A stretch of DNA of 64,000 bases. Source: Fistulifera solaris. Taxonomy: Eukaryota. Location: NCBI GenBank assembly GCA_030295235.1, contig AP026132.1, positions 806,001 through 870,000 on the forward strand. Direction: 5' to 3'. Shown here in pieces: positions 14,911 to 50,804 of this stretch. The notes beneath the pieces were generated by a model, which was not told the DNA's origin, did no database searches, and saw only the letters and a list, made by a program, of their open reading frames with translations. The position numbers were made by a program, and so were the translations under genes. Within the stretch, counting starts at the first letter, position 1. Every line of letters begins with the position of its first letter.

Positions 14911-17900
14911 ATGGAAGAAGGTAGCTTTCCGAGAGGACGTGTGAAGACGGCGGAGCCGCAAGACAAGGATCCCAACCATGTTCGTCGTAAGCGCTCCAAG
15001 TCGGAAGGAGATCACAAGATGCGTCGATCCGATGATATTCTGTTCGGGAAGCGAACCGAAGACAAACAATCGTCTAGGAAAAAGCGCAAACAGTCACCTG
15101 CGGAGGAGAAAGGAGCGCCCGCTTCGCATCAATCTCTGTTGCCCTTGGGCGGTGGAGCTGTCGTACTCCCAAAAGACAAGAGTGGCGGCGGTGATCCGTT
15201 AATTGAAGGTTTAGGCTTCGCCAAGTTGTCAAAAGGCTTTCGAGTACTCGGTTGTGTGCGCGAAGTGCATGCGGATTTGGCTGTTTTCAGCTTACCGAAC
15301 TTGTGGACGGGCTACATGCTCCGATCATCGGATGAAGAGCCCCGTTGTGATTCTATGTTGCAAGTTGGACAGTTTTTGTCGGTTGTGATTGTGAAAGCAG
15401 TTCAAGAACCGGTCAAAGGTGGAGGTCATCGCCGTCGGATTCAGGTATCCTGTTTGCCGAACGCTGTGAACAAGGTCATTAGTGCAGCGGGTGCGCTCAG
15501 TACGCCGCTACGAGATCTATCGACGTTTTCTGGAGCACCAATTCGCTGCCAAATCATGTCGATTGAAGACCATGGAGTTCTAATGAACATTGGCAATGGG
15601 AAGAAAGGCTTTTGAAATTTTCCGACATCGGCGAAGAATACGTTGTCGATGAAGACATGATGATGACAGATGAGGTCACGACGAAAAAACGGTTGGTTGT
15701 TGGTCGCGTCTTGGACTGCTTGGTCAAAGCAGGTACCTCAGCTGATCCGTCCATTATTTCTCTCTCGCTTCCATCTCGCCAAGATCTCATCAAGCATACT
15801 ATTCCATCGGAAACTACTCCTAGTTTGGCTCAGCTGCAGCCCGGTATGCTAGTCCAAGCTAGAGTTGAACGTTTTGCTCGAAATGGCTTGTGTGTCACGT
15901 TTTGTGGAAACATGTTTCGTGGAGCAATTGAAGTACAACACCTCGGTGGATTTTTGGATACCTACGCAGCGTCAAGAGTCGGAAGAGTGGAAACAGTTCT
16001 TTAAAGAGCATCGCTCAATTCCTGCCCGCATCATTGCTGTCGATGTTTCGTCCAAAATCATTCGTCTTTCTCTTCAGTCTCACATACTCGAAATGGAGGT
16101 TGCTGGGTCCACTCAGGAGGTAGGCAATGTCATTCAAAATGCAACTGTGGTCCGTTTGGACCGCGGGGTCGGAGCTTTGCTTGCTTATGAAGTAGACAAG
16201 GAGGGCGCAACGGAAGTCAGGTCAAATGTTTTCAAACCCCTTTCATCGGATGAAAATTACCGTAAAGCCTGTGAGAAAATGGCGGTTTACGTTCACATTT
16301 CTAAAGCCATGGATAAAGATAATCAAAAGCTGTCTGAATCTGAATTTGGGAAAGAATTCGCGCCCAGTACGAAGCATGACGTAAGGATTGTCAGCGCTTC
16401 AAACTGGATTGATGGAATCGCTTCTGGAGCGGCAGCACCAAGTATAGTAGATGCTCAGGTAATATCATATGCTGACATAAAACCGGCAGCAGTGTACAAG
16501 CAAGTCCCTGTAACCGCATTGTTGGATAAAGGAGGTGTGCTGGTAGATCTTGGAATGGGTGTGAAAGGTGTGGTTCCAGACATTCAACTCTTCGACAAGG
16601 TTGTTTCGAGTGAATATCGCACGCAGTTGCGTAAAGTCAAGTTTTCGCCTGGCACCAAAGTTGACCTGCGTGTCTTGACTGTGGATCCGCGGGCCAAAAG
16701 ATGCGTTCTCACTGCAAAGAAAAGTATGGTCAAGACGGAAAAAATTATCAAATCCTTCAATGAAGCGAAAATTGGGGATGTTGGTACGGGATTTGTCTCC
16801 AAGGTAGATGAGCAAGGACTCATGGTTACTTTTTTCGACGGGGTTCATGGTCGTCTTACGGCACGTAGCCTTTCTTCGGATGCCGGAGTTGAAAACCACA
16901 AACATGATTACTCTGTCGGTGATGTTCTCGAGTGCCGGGTCACTAATGTTAAAAGAAAGAGCAAGAGAAAGTCGAACGAGAGGGTGCAAAGTAATGGCGA
17001 GTTGAATGGCGAGCAATCATTTTGCGAACTGACTTTAGGTCTAAACATTGAAGGCAGCGCTCCTAGTCTAGTTGACGATCATGCAGACACTGAGGCAGTC
17101 GTCAAGTTCAGCCCTGGCGCAGTTCTGCCTTTAAAATCAATGCGAATTGTCGAGTTGGTTCACGGTAAATCAAAAGGGGACACATATGTTCCAGGCTATG
17201 CCATTGTTAACGTCAAAGCCAAGTATTTGACCAAAAGTGACGAAGACGACACTCTTTCGACCATTGATTGCAAGCTCCCTTTTGATCAACTTCTTGACGA
17301 GTACGATGAGGTTGATATTGAGTCAGCTGATGCTTTAGATCGGTTCGCTGAAAGTATGCTGACTGTTGGAAAGAAGGTGAATCGAAAAGGGTTTGTGTTG
17401 TTAGACCCGAAAAAGTCGGCGACGGAGTACTCAAGCGGTACAGGTACCTTTGCTATGGTATCGATCCGTCCCCGACTTACTGAAACTCTTTTGAATCAGA
17501 TTGAATCGACTAATACAGACAGCAGAGTGATTGTTCCCGATCCTACCACGGAATTGTACAAAGGAGCCCGACTTGTCGGATACGTTTCAAATATCGATAA
17601 GCGACATGGTGCTTTTATCAGGTACCTAGACGGATTGACAGGTCTCGTGCCAAAACAGAAGGGCGGCCTCTTTCTGCGAAAATATTCTTCCTTGACAACT
17701 GAGGTTGTCGCAGTCGATAAAAGGTTTAATCCTCCCAAACTGCTCGTCAAAGCGTGCACCGAGGCTGTGATCCAAAAAGACAACTCTGTTCATCTCCAAG
17801 TTGGCGACGTCATTGATACGGCAACAGTCACATATCTAGCATTTCACCAAGTATCTGTTGAACTGGATGCCGAGAAGTTTGGGCCCAAGGAAAAGATAAG

Positions 17901-20865
17901 CGCACGAATCCATTGCACGATGGCTCGAAGTAAACCATTAAGCGCCAGACATAATAACGCTTCCATTATGAATACGAAGCAAGAAATTTCAGCGTGTCAT
18001 CCTTTTCATGGATGGGTTGTCGGGCAGAAGATTTCCCATTTGAAGGTTGTTAAAGTTGAAAGCAAAGGAGGAAAGACCTTAGTCGAACTGACGAATGACG
18101 ACGAAATGACATTTCTCAGGAACGAAGATGAACTTTCCGACGGGAAGAAAGTGTCTGGTATTATATACTCAGTGAAGCCCGGAAGTGGCTTATGGATTTC
18201 GGTGAGCCCTGGGATTCTTTGCCATATTCCTGCACTAGAAGCATCGCAGGACGTAAAGATTTTGAACGCTTTGGAAAAGTCCTTCCCGGTTGGCGGCCGC
18301 CTTCATGGCACGATATTAAACAGCAAAGTGTGGTTCGAGAGGAGATCAAAGAACATCCATCACCATCGTAACAACGATGAGTCCAAGGAAAGAGAACCAC
18401 CGATTGTATCTTTGTTAGACCCAATTCAATTTTCATCCAATAAAATGCCAGAAAAAGGGGGCATTCTTATCGCCCGTGTCAATCGTTTTCTTTCTCCTGT
18501 CGGTCCTCCCTCTTTAATGCTCGACTTACGAGGCGGCTTTGTGGGGCGTTGTTGTATTACTGAATTAGATGAACCAGACGACTGGGAGAATATGCCGTTG
18601 GGTCAAAGTGGACGAGTAGCCCATGATTCGAGTCAGTCGAGCAATCCTAAAGCAGGAGAAATGGTGCATGAAAAGGGCGAGAAGCGCGAAATTCGGAAGG
18701 AAACGACAAGGTATGTGTTCTTCGCTAGAACATTACAATGCATCTAAGGAACGGTTGTACGGCTTCAACGGAACGACTGTGAACACTTTGCCACAGGCAA
18801 TTTGAGATGCGACATATTCGGCAAGCGGTGTGGAGAGGCCTTTTGATTTTTGCTCACGATAGGTCGCAATGACAGACTGCCAACATCTTCTCACTTTTTC
18901 TCTCTTTAACCGATAAGCAGGAACGAGCAAGATGCGTTTTGGGGTGGGTACCCGCATGCTGCTTTCGTGCAATGTAGGGTGCTCGAGAGTGTACCTTCGA
19001 AATCTTTCGTTGATGTTAGTTTGAGACAAAGTCGGCTTGATGGGGACTTGGATGAAGATGAAGTTCCCGGGGAAGGAGCACACGTCCAGGCGTTTGTTGT
19101 ATCAACGACAAAAAAGGGTTGCTTTGTTCGTCTTAGTCGTAAGCTCGACGGCAGAGTCATCTTGAAGGAGCTTTGTGACGGATTTCTTCCGAACCCAGAT
19201 GTCGCTTTTCCAATGGGGCGACTTGTTTTTGGAAAAATCAAATCAATTGTAGAGGTGGAGAAAAATGAAATAAAGAAAAAGATTGTGGATCTGGATCTTC
19301 GCGAATCCGTTCTTCTTGAAAATGATGACAAGATAAAGTTTGAAGACATAGAGCTAGGCCGAAAGTACACCGGAACAGTTACTCGCTTGGAAGACTATGG
19401 TATTTTTGTTCGCATTGACTCGAGTGATGTCTCAGGATTGGCACATAAAAGTGAATGCAGTGATAAATTCATCCGAAGCCTTTCAAACCTTTACGATCCG
19501 GGCGACAAGGTAAAGCTGCTGGTTGTAAAGAAGGACGTACTATCCAAAAAGCTTGGTTTCAGTTTGAAAGCGAGTCACTTTATCGATGACGATGACAGCA
19601 CAACTGCTTCCTCCGTTGAACATGCCATTGAAATGCTATCAGATGACGATCGGAATTCAGGGAATGAAGACGGGATGGAAGTTGAGCTTCATTCGGATTC
19701 GGATTCCTATTCGGAAAATGACGACGATTCCTCGAACTCGACTTCGTCTTCATCTGACAGCGACACAGAAATCGCGTCTAAGACAAAAGGAACATCTAAT
19801 CAGTCGATGGATACCGACGTTGGCTTCAATTGGGGTAATCGCGGCGATAAACAAGCTAAGGATTCGGATGATAGCTCGGATGAGCATTCAAGCGATTCTG
19901 ATGAAGAGGGTGATACACCTCGGACGTCTCACAAGTCTCGTCGAAAGCAAGCACAGCGGCGGAAAGAAGAGCGTGAGATTGCCAAGCGAGAAAGTGCGCT
20001 CGCAGACGGTACGGCTGACGATAATCCCGAGACGGAGGCTGATTTTGAGCGTCTTATTGCAAACGACCCTAATTCATCTGAGTTATGGATTAGGTTCATG
20101 GCGTTCCACCTCTCTTTAGCTGATATCTCTGCTGCTCGAGAGGTGGCGAATCGAGCTTTAATAAGATTGAGTTCCGCGAAGAAAGCGAGAAGATGAATGT
20201 TTGGTGCGCTCTTTTGACTTTGGAGTTAAAATTTGGAACAGAGAGCAGCATCAATGAAACATTTGAAAGAGCATGTCAACATAATAACCCAAAGCACGTG
20301 CATTTAAGATTTGCCGAGATTTTGGACAAGAGTAGCGGTTCTTCTAGTACTGCAACAGTGCAACGGTTGGACGACCTTTATCTCAAAATGTGCAAGAAGT
20401 TTCGAACTAAAAAGAAAGTATGGCTCGCACACATGGAGTACCTGCTAAAGAACGAAAGAGAGGAAGACGCCTTAGCCGTGTCCAAGAAATGTGTTCTTTC
20501 TCTTCCTCCATATAAGCATGTTGAAACGCTATTCAAATTTGCCCAGCTGGTGTTTGAGTACGGTAATGTGGAGAGGGGTAGAACTCTATTTGACGGTTTG
20601 TTACGTAAAGCGCCTAAACGATTGGACATATTTTTCGTTTACACGGACAAAGAGATCAAGTATGGAGACATTGCTGTTGCGCGTTCCTTGTTTCAGAGGG
20701 TGTGCATCCCCGCAGACGAGACTGTATCGTTGAAGCTTTCCGACAAAAAAAATGAAGAGCTTTTTCAAAAAATGGTATGCATTTGAAGAACAGCACGGCA
20801 CAGCAGTAACACAGGAAAGAGTTAAGGAGGCAGCAAGACAATTTGTTGAACGGTCACTAGCTTAG
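14911..20865 (+). CDS. RRP5: rRNA biogenesis protein RRP5 (multiple S1 domains plus C-terminal HAT repeats); frameshifts at ~15612, ~15953, ~20160, ~20750
   Basis: N-terminal SFPRG, repeated S1 motifs (IEDHG, TRLEDYGIFV), DFERLI..PNSSELWIRFMAF, repaired IEFREESEKMNVW and KKMKSFFKKWYAFEEQHG. Intron 18711-18920. Confidence 0.95.
18740..18888 (+). ncRNA. Candidate intronic H/ACA box snoRNA (two hairpins)
   Basis: Hairpin 1 stem 18751-58/18773-80. Hairpin 2 stems 18796-99/18878-81 and 18808-13/18863-68. ACA at 18883-85. Pocket strands are complementary to 18S in this window. The H box is non-canonical. Confidence 0.55.
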
Positions 20866-40661: not shown

Positions 40662-42940
40662 CTACAAGCTTTCGGCATCAGTAAACTCGCTCAAGACATC
40701 ATTACTCATTGATGAGAAGATCATGCTTCGACTTCGCGGGGGTCTGCTATATTGCGTAGTATTCCTTTGCCTAGGCGTTTCAGCACTAGCTGAAACTCGC
40801 ACCCGAGTCAGGCGGTCATGCCATTGTTCCTCGAACTGTCCAAGATCATTTAATACTTCTCCTGTATGCGCGGCGTTGTCTAATTGCATTTGGAGAATGT
40901 TCTCGCCTACATCGGATTCCTTCTTTGCTAGTTTGTGAACACTATCCGTTTTCGTTTTCTTCTGTACCTTGTTCGTCGAATCTGCTCCGCATTCCAAATC
41001 AGTACAGATATCTTCAGAAGCAAGCGGATTCAGCGTGAACGACTCATTAAGCTTATTATTGCTTTCGTCTGACTTTCGGCGACGCCCAATAAATCTGGCA
41101 ATCAGTTTCTTATCTGCTAGTTTGGATTCTCCAGAAGACACACTGCTTTGAAGAATGTCGAGACCATGCAACGAGGAATCGAGACTTCCGCTTCCCTCTG
41201 TTCTTTCGGCGGAATTGGTTCTTGATTTACATTCCATATTTGCTCTTCTCGTAACTTGTTCAGCATCATGAGAGCTTTCAGATGCTACACTTGGCGGACC
41301 GAAAGCATCGCCTCTTTCAACGAGAACACCATCTGTAGCAAACCCGATGACTCGGGGAATCGATCGAACGCTGGAGGAAGCAGTATCCTTTGGTCGAGAG
41401 CGGTTCGCACCAACTTCCCGAGATTGTCGTGAGCGACGAATAATCAGCATGCTTACAACTATAGCAAGCACAGCTCCGCCTAGCAGCGCACCTGCAAGCA
41501 TTGTCGATGTTATTCCTTTGTTCGTGTCTGTGGGATTTTCTTCGCCTTGAATCTCTGTGATAATAGGCCCCTTGTCACTAACATCAACAGCCGGGAAGTA
41601 AGCCATAGATCCGAGCAGCGAAAGTAGTTCGTCCGAATAAGTGTGAAATGTCAAGGCCACAATGTTACTGAATGCAACGTTGTCAGGAAGTTTCACTTCG
41701 CTCCTAACTTGGAGCAGAATAGATAGCACAAATTCACTTGAATCATTCTCTTCTTGTAGCTTTCTTTGCTTGCCAAGGTTCTGATTCAAAATTTGACAAT
41801 CAATTTTGTTGTAATCGGCGTTGTATGTTTTCGGAAGAAACGTGGGAAGAAATTCCCTTTGCATAGATTCTGAAATATTCTCACATCATCTTCGTTCAGT
41901 TCGGTCTCTGCCAATGTAGTCAGGTCTAGAAGCTGAACAGTTGAATGAATTGTTTCGCCTTGTCCATTATTATCGGTGTCGACAAAAATTGACGGGGCAT
42001 CCGTAGGATTCTGAGATGGACCCGGGCTAGGAGTTGAGACTACTGGCTGTATCGGTTGTTGAGTCGGTTTTGGTGTTCGGCCATCGGAATCCACCTTACT
42101 TGCAGTAGGATGAGCGCTCGGAAGCTCAGTGACTGGATTCCTCGTCACACTGCCTTTCGCACTAGGTCTATTGCTGTTTAGCACAGTTGGAGGTCGGCTC
42201 CCTTTTCCAGTAACCTTAGTTGGTGTGAGACTACCGTTAGCAGTCGGTTTGTTGGTTTCCACTAAAGTCGGAATAGCGCTTGAAGTTTCAATATATGTCT
42301 CACTCGGAACAGCACTGGGTGAAAAGCTACGAATAGGGGCAGGAACGGGCGGAGAATAGATTGGTTGTCGACTCGCATCGTCTTCAAATACAAGAGTTGG
42401 AGCAAGACTTGGCGCGTCGCTAGGAGTGAGACTTGGTACATCACTAGGAATACCACTGAGCTCGTCGCTAGCAAATTGACTTGGGACTGAACTCGGAGCA
42501 TCGCTCGGCATCCGACTGATAACAAGAGAAGAATCGTAGGTTGCGTTTACGGATTGGGTCATCCCCTCCAAGAAGGAATTTGAGTTCTGCTGTGGTTTCT
42601 TTGGAATCGGTGGCTTCACAGAAGTAGAGCCAGAGACTAATGTATCTACACGTTGAGATTTCAACACCGGGTCGTCTTCTGTCGGTATAAGGAACCGACG
42701 TGACATTGACGTTTGACTAGAAACTGACAACGCAAGCCTTCCACCATCTTTCCAATACTCCGTTTTTTCTTTATGGAACGATTCATTCACCACTCTCTCA
42801 TCAGCATATCTGTCAAGGTAAGTTTTTGAGATACTGCTAGACGTCTTCGAGCTGGCCTGAATTCATGACGTGATCATTACTTACATGGCGCGCGAACCGA
42901 TTATACTATACAACAGTGCTAATACTGTAATCCCTCTCAT
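40662..42940 (-). CDS. Type I membrane protein: signal peptide, PSxxPS/PT mucin-like repeats, RKLQ motif, TM; frameshift ~41850
   Basis: Exon 1 42940-42885 (MRGITVLALLYSIIGSRA), intron 42810-42884 GTAAGT..CAG in frame. TM MLAGALLGGAVLAIVVSMLII. Confidence 0.78.
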
Positions 42941-49228: not shown

Positions 49229-50804
49229 AGCGCCACACTCTCACGCGCCTTTCAGACACAAAGTAGCTTTATCGATTAATCTTAGATCATTCATTTTAAA
49301 GTTCCTGCTTTAGCCCAAGCTGACTTTCCCATTTCTTTCAAGTAGTATTGTTGACGGGGACACCTACCAGCGGTCCTGTGGAGAAATGTCGCTGATCAGT
49401 TCATCTTCGTGAAACCGTATACGAGTTTTACAACCTCAAAGCCTTCTTCGTCGACTACCGGTACTGTGTGACATTTGACGCGATTATTCTCCGTCAGCCT
49501 CGGAAAGTTAAAGTTGATGTAAATGATCACAATCTCAAAGGTCGTTGCAGTCCACGTTGTTGTTGTCGTCCTTGTGCCGAATTGAGTGGAACGAATGTTA
49601 TTGACTACGACTGAGGTGTCGACGAAACTTGCGTGAGCCCTTTTCTGTTCTTTATTGAAGCTCGTTTGCTACCTGGTAAAGTCAACAAAGTGTTCCTCGC
49701 ATCCCTCGCCCCGCCTTCCCCACAGAAACTTATGTCAATCCTAATCGCCGCCTCCCTTTCACATAGCTCGCATCACATAAACTGCATCCAAGTCAACTAC
49801 CAACCAAGAAGAACGTTGGTCGAATCTTTCGTGCGCGAAAGGAAAATACTATGTTTGGCTGAATCACTATCGTATAGCGCAGACGGGAGAGGTTGTCTCC
49901 TGAAAGTAGCAAAAGAGTGTGAAAGTCCGAGTGAGCACAATTTTTTCCACTCGCTTGCTTGATCGGCGCGGAGACCGCCTCTTCCCGACATTCCGAAACA
50001 AGACAAATTGCGTATAATGTAGGCCTGCGGAGCTGTTTGTCGCTTCTTCCAAGTGACGAACGTGAAATTACTTGGAGAGCAAAGCACTGACAACGGGCTG
50101 GAAGGCTTTGCTGGGGATAGACGACTGACTTTACAGCGACTAGAATCCAGACTCTACCGCTCGAAATGACTCACAGACACGCAGAAGCATTTGTTCCGCT
50201 TATCTATCTGCAAAAATACAGTATTCCAGCAAGTTTCCTCGGCGGGTTGCGACGCGAACGGCGAAAAATCCTCCGACCAGAGTGTGCGTGAATGCGCTCT
50301 TTGCAGATTTTCACGACGCGATGACTGAATGCTCAATGTAACCAAACTGCTGAATCTCTCGCTTGTAGTGGATGTTATGTTATAGACGTTGTAGCATTGT
50401 TTGCTTGTTTTCATAGAGCTTTCTAGGACGACGCGCGAACCGCGACAGTGTGATGAATTCATGACTGAAGTGTAGTCGTGGATTTTTGATACCACACTTT
50501 GTGGATAGATCCGCAAGACTTTTGATCGCTTTCTACCAAGAAATAAACAGCAGCTGGTGTTAAGAATGGTTACATCTTGAAGTGAAAATGTTATTTGAGC
50601 TTATTCAGCATGCATAACGGATGCAGGGTATTTAATATGTAAGCCCTATTGCTTACATTTATTAGATTCATGACTGAAACGCAGTCGTGGAGCATGGAGG
50701 ATAAAAAGCAAAACACAAAATGCGCTGAATGCAGTTTCACCATGGCGGTCGAGGCGATCATAATGATCCTTTTCATAACACAGTAGACGGATTGCTTTTC
50801 TAGC

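Follow-up and report, generated by a model that had tools for sequence, protein, structure and literature searches.

An intron of the RRP5 gene of Fistulifera solaris probably encodes a box H/ACA-class small nucleolar RNA (snoRNA) of ~150 nucleotides (nt), at roughly 18736–18888 on the forward strand of a 64,000-nt stretch of contig AP026132.1 (assembly GCA_030295235.1, positions 806,001 to 870,000). The whole of this stretch is called the window below, and its own numbering is used throughout. The assignment comes from comparing sequences: a hairpin-hinge-hairpin layout, an A.A hinge, a fixed spacing of the ACA box and covarying helices occur together, and membership of the H/ACA class is therefore well supported. 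The original prediction for this DNA had placed an H/ACA guide RNA in the same intron, drawn as two ACA-ended hairpins with CACA as the hinge and with pockets for U1477 and U1545 of the 18S ribosomal RNA (rRNA). Its class and its ribosome-biogenesis host hold up, the intron position being conserved in eight loci and the spacing of ACA fixed at 14 nt; an alignment of the orthologous introns, the check that it had suggested, shows the RNA kept at the same RRP5 position in eight distinct loci, with several helices covarying. The two ACA-ended hairpins are contradicted by the relatives, which place a eukaryotic-type hinge box at 18812–18817 after a longer hairpin 1. Judged by its sequence, the predicted RNA is probably a new H/ACA-type snoRNA, either orphan or lineage-specific.

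Conservation and fold of the intron RNA

The reading frames on either side of the intron match the Pfam families S1, S1_RRP5, OB_RRP5_4th and HAT in a domain search; the host is therefore RRP5, and an atlas look-up likewise confirmed this. The 210-nt intron claimed at the outset is borne out by its GT..AG borders (18711–18920, forward strand) and by RNA contigs from two of three sequencing runs of one study (X2 and X3 of X1–X3), which join across exactly 210 nt. The X2 and X3 contigs show the spliced form, leave most of the intron uncovered and probably derive from mRNA libraries, so that they speak to splicing and not to a small RNA; X1 covers 18631–18891 at exon-like depth and looks like DNA.

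Relatives were gathered in one scan of metagenome contigs, which are environmental sequences, with the protein of the downstream exon as the query. The scan returned 14 RRP5 loci (L001–L014) at 42–70% identity, and in ten of them RRP5 protein is matched both before and after the junction. Of these ten, seven carry an insert, with 273–494 nt between the protein matches (L001, L003, L005, L008, L009, L010 and L012), and three do not, with 15–69 nt (L004, L006 and L011); L006, L011 and L013 read through the junction in one frame. The sequences of L007 and L002 begin within this intron, L002 being a duplicate of L001. In all, eight distinct relatives have an intron at the same codon position (the seven insert-bearing loci and L007), and all eight inserts hold a homologous RNA block. 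The window and these eight relatives make up the nine RNAs compared below.

The block is conserved beyond its surroundings. Its identity is 79–82% in L001, L003 and L008, compared with 32–59% for the intron flanks and 63–81% for the adjacent 100 nt of exon. Four short motifs recur across the inserts: GGAACG (GGACCG in L007), CUGUGA (from which L010 deviates), GGUGUGRAG, in which UGUG is invariant in 9/9 and which reads UUUGUGGAG in L012, and RAUGA.A, in which AUGA is invariant in 9/9. A model built on the 3' domain of the RNA, R1, matches the window at 18812–18890 (E 1.5e-15); over 151 kb it finds 10 places in 10 of 15 sources (E 1e-12 to 6e-21), with no other match in the 64-kb window and none in L004, L006, L011, L013 or L014.

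One insert-less locus stands out by its junction. L004 (3755–3884) and L003 (3679–4031) have near-identical exons, which in L004 are joined precisely at the position of the L003 intron, and L004 holds no R1 copy. Either the metagenome collection includes L004 as a transcript contig, or the intron was recently and precisely lost there.

The comparative fold has the order hairpin, hinge, hairpin and tail, with helices P1 and P2 in hairpin 1 and P3, P4 and P5 in hairpin 2 (Table 1); P1, P3 and P5 covary, and P2 and P4 are conserved. P1 pairs in each RNA despite differing sequence (UGCAUCU/AGAUGCG, UGCACA/UGUGCA, CGCAU/GUGCG and CUCGGC/GCCGAG), and the pairing is kept in the divergent sequences of L012, L005 and L008. 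Cognate P1 strands pair at −8.96 kcal/mol compared with −6.85 kcal/mol for non-cognate ones, and 87 of 5000 permutations were equally good. In the MAFFT alignment of the 5' domain, L012, L010 and the 3' strands were wrongly aligned, and that alignment was left out of the pair counts. Between P2 and P1 lies a side hairpin, present in 8/9 RNAs by automatic folding (L007 folded differently) and, by our own reading of the sequences, also in L007; its sequences differ among the RNAs. The hinge box that follows P1 has A1 and A3 in 9/9 and the full ANANNA in 6/9, the exceptions being the window (ACAUAU), L007 (AGAUAU) and L012 (AGAUUG).

In five of the nine RNAs (L001, L003, L008, L005 and L012), the 5' loop strand of hairpin 1 can alternatively pair with the bases immediately upstream of the 3' strand of P1, as UCCGA does with UUGGA in L003. 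This pairing, which in L001, L003 and L008 competes with the side hairpin, may represent an alternative conformation.

Across P3, P4 and P5 of hairpin 2, 83% of the alignment cells are paired, compared with 32–43% when the partners are slid by 1–3 columns, and the covariation score of 0.46, set against 0.31 in shuffles, was reached by 0 of 500 of them; an alignment made with the model gave a similar result. P5 alone has 93% of its cells paired, and three of its five pairs change on both sides. In a separate test of helices, the cognate partner of P3 ranked first or second in 8/8 evaluated rows, and L010 failed. The distance from the start of AUGA to the ACA column is exactly 14 nt in 9/9, with ACA itself in 8/9, located 0–1 nt after P3. 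The position of ACA at 18883–18885, 14 nt after the end of the upper stem, had been noted in the original prediction and agrees with the sequence.

Complementarity to ribosomal RNA

The case for a target is best made for hairpin 1. Its strands were originally reported to pair 6 + 8 bp, with one G-U each, around 18S U56489 (nt 1477), and this complementarity is present; in a control with the pocket held fixed, 3 of 1000 pocket shuffles equalled it. In the revised fold the free loop strands AAGGA and GAACACU form 4 of 5 and 7 of 7 Watson–Crick pairs with 18S CCUU and AGUGUUC around U1477. With the loop limited to its free bases, a pairing as good as this 4 + 7 arose in 14 of 2000 shuffles and in 4 of 2000 random loops; the pairing extends to 6 + 8 if the helices breathe. 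We also scored hairpins with a scanner whose criteria are a loop between an upper and a lower stem, ACA at 12–16 nt and rRNA complementarity. The shuffled-intron control that had been proposed gave qualified support by this measure, the score of hairpin 1 being reached in 8 of 1500 dinucleotide-shuffled introns. It follows from the wider count given below that the pairing is notable only with this intron as the search space. Hairpin 1 may thus guide pseudouridylation at U1477 in this organism, a tentative assignment from complementarity that we hold to be somewhat more likely wrong than right.

The site lies in 18S helix 41, which is described as unmodified in human and yeast and as carrying mapped pseudouridines in Arabidopsis (PMC8351944). 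The Arabidopsis table of that source has no pseudouridine at ~1495 or ~1563, which we estimate to be the equivalents of U1477 and U1545 by a hand-derived offset of 18.

The motifs that flank U1477, AGAGUGUUC and UCCUUGGA, have second copies in 18S at 55756–64 and 55842–49, 77 nt apart in the area of expansion segment 6 (ES6). Speaking against U1477, the hairpin-1 strands also pair 9 + 8 bp with these copies, which 2 of 300 shuffles equalled when gaps of 2–90 nt were allowed. The pairing in the ES6 area occurs in no relative, and bipartite pairing with 2–90 nt between the arms gave no site common to the RNAs. With the spacers and flanks of 50000–64000 as targets, none was better than U1477.

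For hairpin 2 the outcome was different. The 8 + 4 bp complementarity around U56557 (nt 1545) exists, but as a target it is unsupported: 94 of 1000 shuffles equal it, and the strand involved is not a pocket. The proposed pocket TTTGAGAT (18801–08) corresponds in the relatives to the linker and the 3' strand of P1, and because the relatives assign 18801–11 in this way, the U1545 target falls away. U56557 was matched to human 18S Ψ1625, an equivalence that we take as an assumption. Human Ψ1625 is itself a real site in helix 42 and is assigned to SNORA5C (PMC10227372, PMC10835520).

The loop of the revised hairpin 2 (AGCGG and AUGACAGAC) has no site above chance in the rRNAs or spacers. Perfect 9-mer matches to 50000–64000 numbered seven, with ~8 expected by chance on a rough estimate. 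A perfect 10-nt complement of 28S 60651–60660 is formed by CGGCAAGCGG (18819–18828), which spans P3 and the 5' loop strand of hairpin 2, with no second arm; it contributes two overlapping 9-mers to this count. The target motif predicted from L003 has 70 matches at ≤3 mismatches compared with 57 expected, none of them convincing in rRNA.

Weighing the H/ACA reading

Several observations weigh against an H/ACA snoRNA. The hinge box of the window lacks the third A of ANANNA, L009 has UCA in place of ACA, and the 5' loop strand of hairpin 2 is just 2–5 nt long. From the top of the hairpin-1 loop to the hinge box there are 31 nt in the window and 18–35 nt across the RNAs, compared with a canonical 14–16; by hand count the distance minus the side hairpin is ~12–16 nt in 6/9, 18 nt in the window, 10 nt in L010 and 9 nt in L012. 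No Rfam family matches the intron at E ≤ 10, and a scan of the window at gathering scores returned rRNAs only. The same Rfam covariance-model check, which had been suggested at the outset, found no family at E ≤ 10 in the RNA blocks of seven relatives, with chance-level matches (E 1.8 and 8.3) at the 5' edge of the L009 intron. The guide-like loop strands are the most variable parts of the RNA, and its stems, with the bases next to them, are invariant; in ordinary guides the loops are best conserved. With the rRNA of the window as proxy, U1477 appears among the top matches of none of the eight relatives, and no rRNA site is common to the loops of the nine RNAs, the best sums being weak (scores 4–8). 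By our own reading, the 5' loop strands of the relatives, which end in CCGA, CGGA or UGGA, are unable to pair with CCUUGG. Across the window, on both strands and with the ribosomal DNA masked, three units score as high as hairpin 1, and the mean in 20 block shuffles is 3.1. The fold energies are unremarkable (z-scores of −0.86 for the whole intron, −0.91 for 18740–18888, −1.19 for hairpin 1 and −1.85 for hairpin 2). Finally, the minimum free energy (MFE) fold of 18733–18890 taken alone, at −40.4 kcal/mol, is that of the original drawing, and enforcing the comparative helices gives −32.9 kcal/mol.

Two other units of the window were recorded in the same scan, one at 62874–62954 on the forward strand (score 14 against 28S U2675) and one at 42668–42729, also forward (score 13 against 28S U1810), in a window-wide count at the level of shuffles.

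The last of these objections leads to the original drawing itself, two ACA-ended hairpins guiding 18S U1477 and U1545. Besides being the MFE of the isolated segment, it has in its favor that both drawn rRNA pairings are present in the sequence and that its supposed human counterpart is a genuine site. Its hairpin-1 stem, ACGGTTGT/ACGACTGT, is present, and folding 18740–18888 in isolation does give both hairpins; the relatives, however, support a different fold. The CACA is indeed 12 nt after pocket 1, but its role as hinge does not survive comparison: the equivalent of 18793–95 in the relatives is a varied hairpin loop without ACA, the loop of the side hairpin, and the conserved hinge box lies elsewhere. 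In hairpin 2 the 3' strands (GUCGCA, AUGA, UGCC and ACA) were correctly placed, but their 5' partners were not, 18796–99 and 18808–13 giving way to 18820–23 and 18829–33. The stem UGCGAC/GUCGCA is without counterpart in L007 and L009 by our own reading, and T18808 is counted both in pocket TTTGAGAT, as its last base, and in stem TGCGAC (18808–13), as its first. The window MFE departs from the comparative fold in the 5' half of hairpin 2, and the whole-intron MFE does contain P1 and the side hairpin. We give more weight to the comparison among relatives than to the optimum of a single sequence, and P1 would be transcribed before the competing 3' strand. The fold as originally drawn is accordingly very improbable.

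Three further explanations dispense with the H/ACA class. The element could be a cis-acting conserved intron structure that controls splicing or expression of RRP5, for example through feedback by the Rrp5 protein, with no small nucleolar ribonucleoprotein acting in trans. It is always found in the same intron of the same gene, its stems and flanking bases are conserved and the would-be guide strands are not, no common rRNA target was found, and a local hairpin pairs the 5' splice site when the whole intron is folded. Such a structure leaves unexplained the ACA spacing, the A.A hinge and the two-hairpin layout, all of which H/ACA proteins need; beyond the consensus, the splice sites and the flanks of the intron show no conservation, and long residence in one host intron is usual for snoRNAs, which counts against it as well. 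We consider cis action improbable. A stable intron-derived RNA of an undescribed class, with a superficial likeness to H/ACA RNAs, would account for the invariant GGUGUG, AUGA and GA/GA flanks, which are non-standard for H/ACA, for the side hairpin inside a loop and for the lack of an Rfam match, but H/ACA is the simplest reading, and the other classes that we compared by eye did not fit; another class is distinctly improbable. That the fold is a chance product without function in a long intron would agree with fold z-scores near −1 and with a window-wide rate of hairpins with ACA equal to that of shuffles. This is scarcely credible for a block conserved at exon level or better, in flanks that are not, and with covarying helices.

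Comparison by eye with known classes gave the following. The boxes of C/D RNAs did not fit, nor did the GA motifs fit a kink-turn (K-turn); a CAB box in the loops was likewise rejected. The m1 (AUAUUCCUA) and m2 (AAACCAU) elements of U17/snR30 are absent from all nine RNAs, on which ground identity with U17/snR30 was rejected; the window has just AUAUUC, in the hinge (18814–19). These elements are near-invariant from yeast to Tetrahymena according to Table 1 of PMC7601244.

The H/ACA assignment can be set beside the known members of that class. With canonical guides such as human SNORA5 (18S Ψ1238 and Ψ1625), the RNA shares a length of ~150 nt, the hairpin-hinge-hairpin-tail order, a hinge box rich in A, an ACA 14 nt downstream of the top of the 3' loop, an intronic site in a ribosome-related host and, for this species, a two-part loop that is complementary to rRNA on either side of an unpaired UU. 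It differs in the lack of an Rfam match, in loop strands that are the least conserved parts, in the side hairpin in the 3' strand of the 5' loop, in the hinge ACAUAU, in a 5' loop 31 nt from the hinge and in having no target found for the 3' hairpin. The essential, non-modifying snR30/U17 (SNORA73), which pairs with 18S ES6, likewise has the H/ACA layout and no evident modification target for its 3' hairpin; the present RNA could conceivably be linked to Rrp5 in function, and the hairpin-1 strands of the window pair in the ES6 area. Unlike snR30/U17, the RNA is missing m1 and m2, its conserved bases are distal rather than basal in the loop, and its ES6 pairing is in the 5' hairpin and not common to the relatives. 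H/ACA RNAs of one or several hairpins, each followed by ACA or AGA, occur in archaea, trypanosomatids and Euglena. They resemble only the drawing with two ACA-ended hairpins, and here the internal ACA is a loop and the hinge is of the eukaryotic type. In the sources that we searched, PMC4247016 among them, there was no catalogue of H/ACA snoRNAs for diatom-like algae.

If the intron does encode an H/ACA RNA, that RNA would be trimmed out of the spliced RRP5 intron, protected after release by H/ACA proteins and made in step with RRP5. Because the relatives differ in loop sequence without a common rRNA site, the family may consist of orphan H/ACA RNAs or of ones that retarget fast. One proposal, unlikely but deserving of some weight, is that it is an orphan across the lineage, kept in RRP5 for a non-modifying role in pre-rRNA folding or processing. 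On the same low estimate, the invariant GA/GA, GGUGUG and AUGA, the side hairpin and the fast-evolving loop strands might serve that role. It is equally doubtful that the RNA acts as a chaperone in the manner of snR30 and snR10, coupled to the dosage of Rrp5, with loops that would track species-specific pre-rRNA. In PMC7601244, release of Rrp5 is described as a prerequisite for the dissociation of snR30.

The family offers an example of an H/ACA-type RNA in which the stems evolve more slowly than the guide-like strands, and of a single-sequence fold that can be thermodynamically best yet overruled by comparison with relatives. Model R1 is a concrete seed for finding the family in whole genomes, and a species-specific pseudouridine at 18S U1477 in helix 41 is a testable prediction.

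Features of the window and of the host gene

Table 1. Features of the predicted RRP5 intron RNA, its host gene and its candidate rRNA target (window positions).
Feature	Position	Strand	Remarks
Upstream RRP5 exon	15853..18710	+	Open frame; S1, S1_RRP5 and OB_RRP5_4th domains
Host intron of the RNA	18711..18920	+	From sequence; X2 and X3 contigs skip 210 nt
Predicted mature RNA, ~150 nt	18736..18888	+	Ends inferred from first helix and ACA+3; homologous block in 8 loci
P1 5' strand, hairpin-1 lower stem, UGCAUCU	18739..18745	+	Pairs with 18805–11, −9.1 kcal/mol; in whole-intron MFE
Hairpin-1 internal loop, 5' strand AAGGA	18746..18750	+	AAGG complementary to 18S 56491–94; trailing GA conserved
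P2, upper stem-loop of hairpin 1, ACGGUUGU...ACGACUGU	18751..18780	+	Conserved GA flanks on both sides
Hairpin-1 loop, 3' strand GAACACU	18781..18787	+	7/7 nt complementary to 18S 56482–88
Side hairpin UUGCC-ACA-GGCAA	18788..18800	+	ACA loop 18793–95; in whole-intron MFE
P1 3' strand AGAUGCG	18805..18811	+	Comparative pairing
Hinge box ACAUAU	18812..18817	+	H-like: A1 and A3 present, position 6 is U, not A
P3 5' strand, hairpin-2 lower stem, GGCA	18820..18823	+	Pairs with 18878–81
P4 5' strand UGUGG	18829..18833	+	Inside conserved GGUGUGRAG block; pairs with 18864–68
P5 and apical part of hairpin 2, CCUUU...AUAGG	18839..18863	+	P5 18839–43 with 18859–63
P4 3' strand UCGCA	18864..18868	+	Comparative pairing
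Hairpin-2 internal loop, 3' strand AUGACAGAC	18869..18877	+	AUGA invariant 9/9
P3 3' strand UGCC	18878..18881	+	Comparative pairing
ACA box	18883..18885	+	14 nt after P4 end; ACA in this column in 8/9
Downstream RRP5 exon	18921..20193	+	S1 domains, then HAT repeats
Candidate target in 18S helix 41, GAGUGUUC-UU-CCUUGG	56481..56496	+	U56489 (nt 1477) unpaired

At the start of the intron, the 5' splice site GUAUGU is paired with 18727–36 in a local 10-bp hairpin (18711–18736) in the whole-intron fold.

Over 17200–20400 the contigs of X1–X3 come in two versions that differ by ~7% in exons (in one example, 38 letters differ over 532 nt), which suggests two diverged alleles or homeologous copies; a second copy of the intron was not among the contigs at 90% likeness. 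The frame of RRP5 shifts near 20156, where the frames 18910–20196 and 20124–20786 overlap. All three runs have one extra T after 20156 relative to the window, and the shift is probably a 1-nt assembly deletion in the window rather than an intron.

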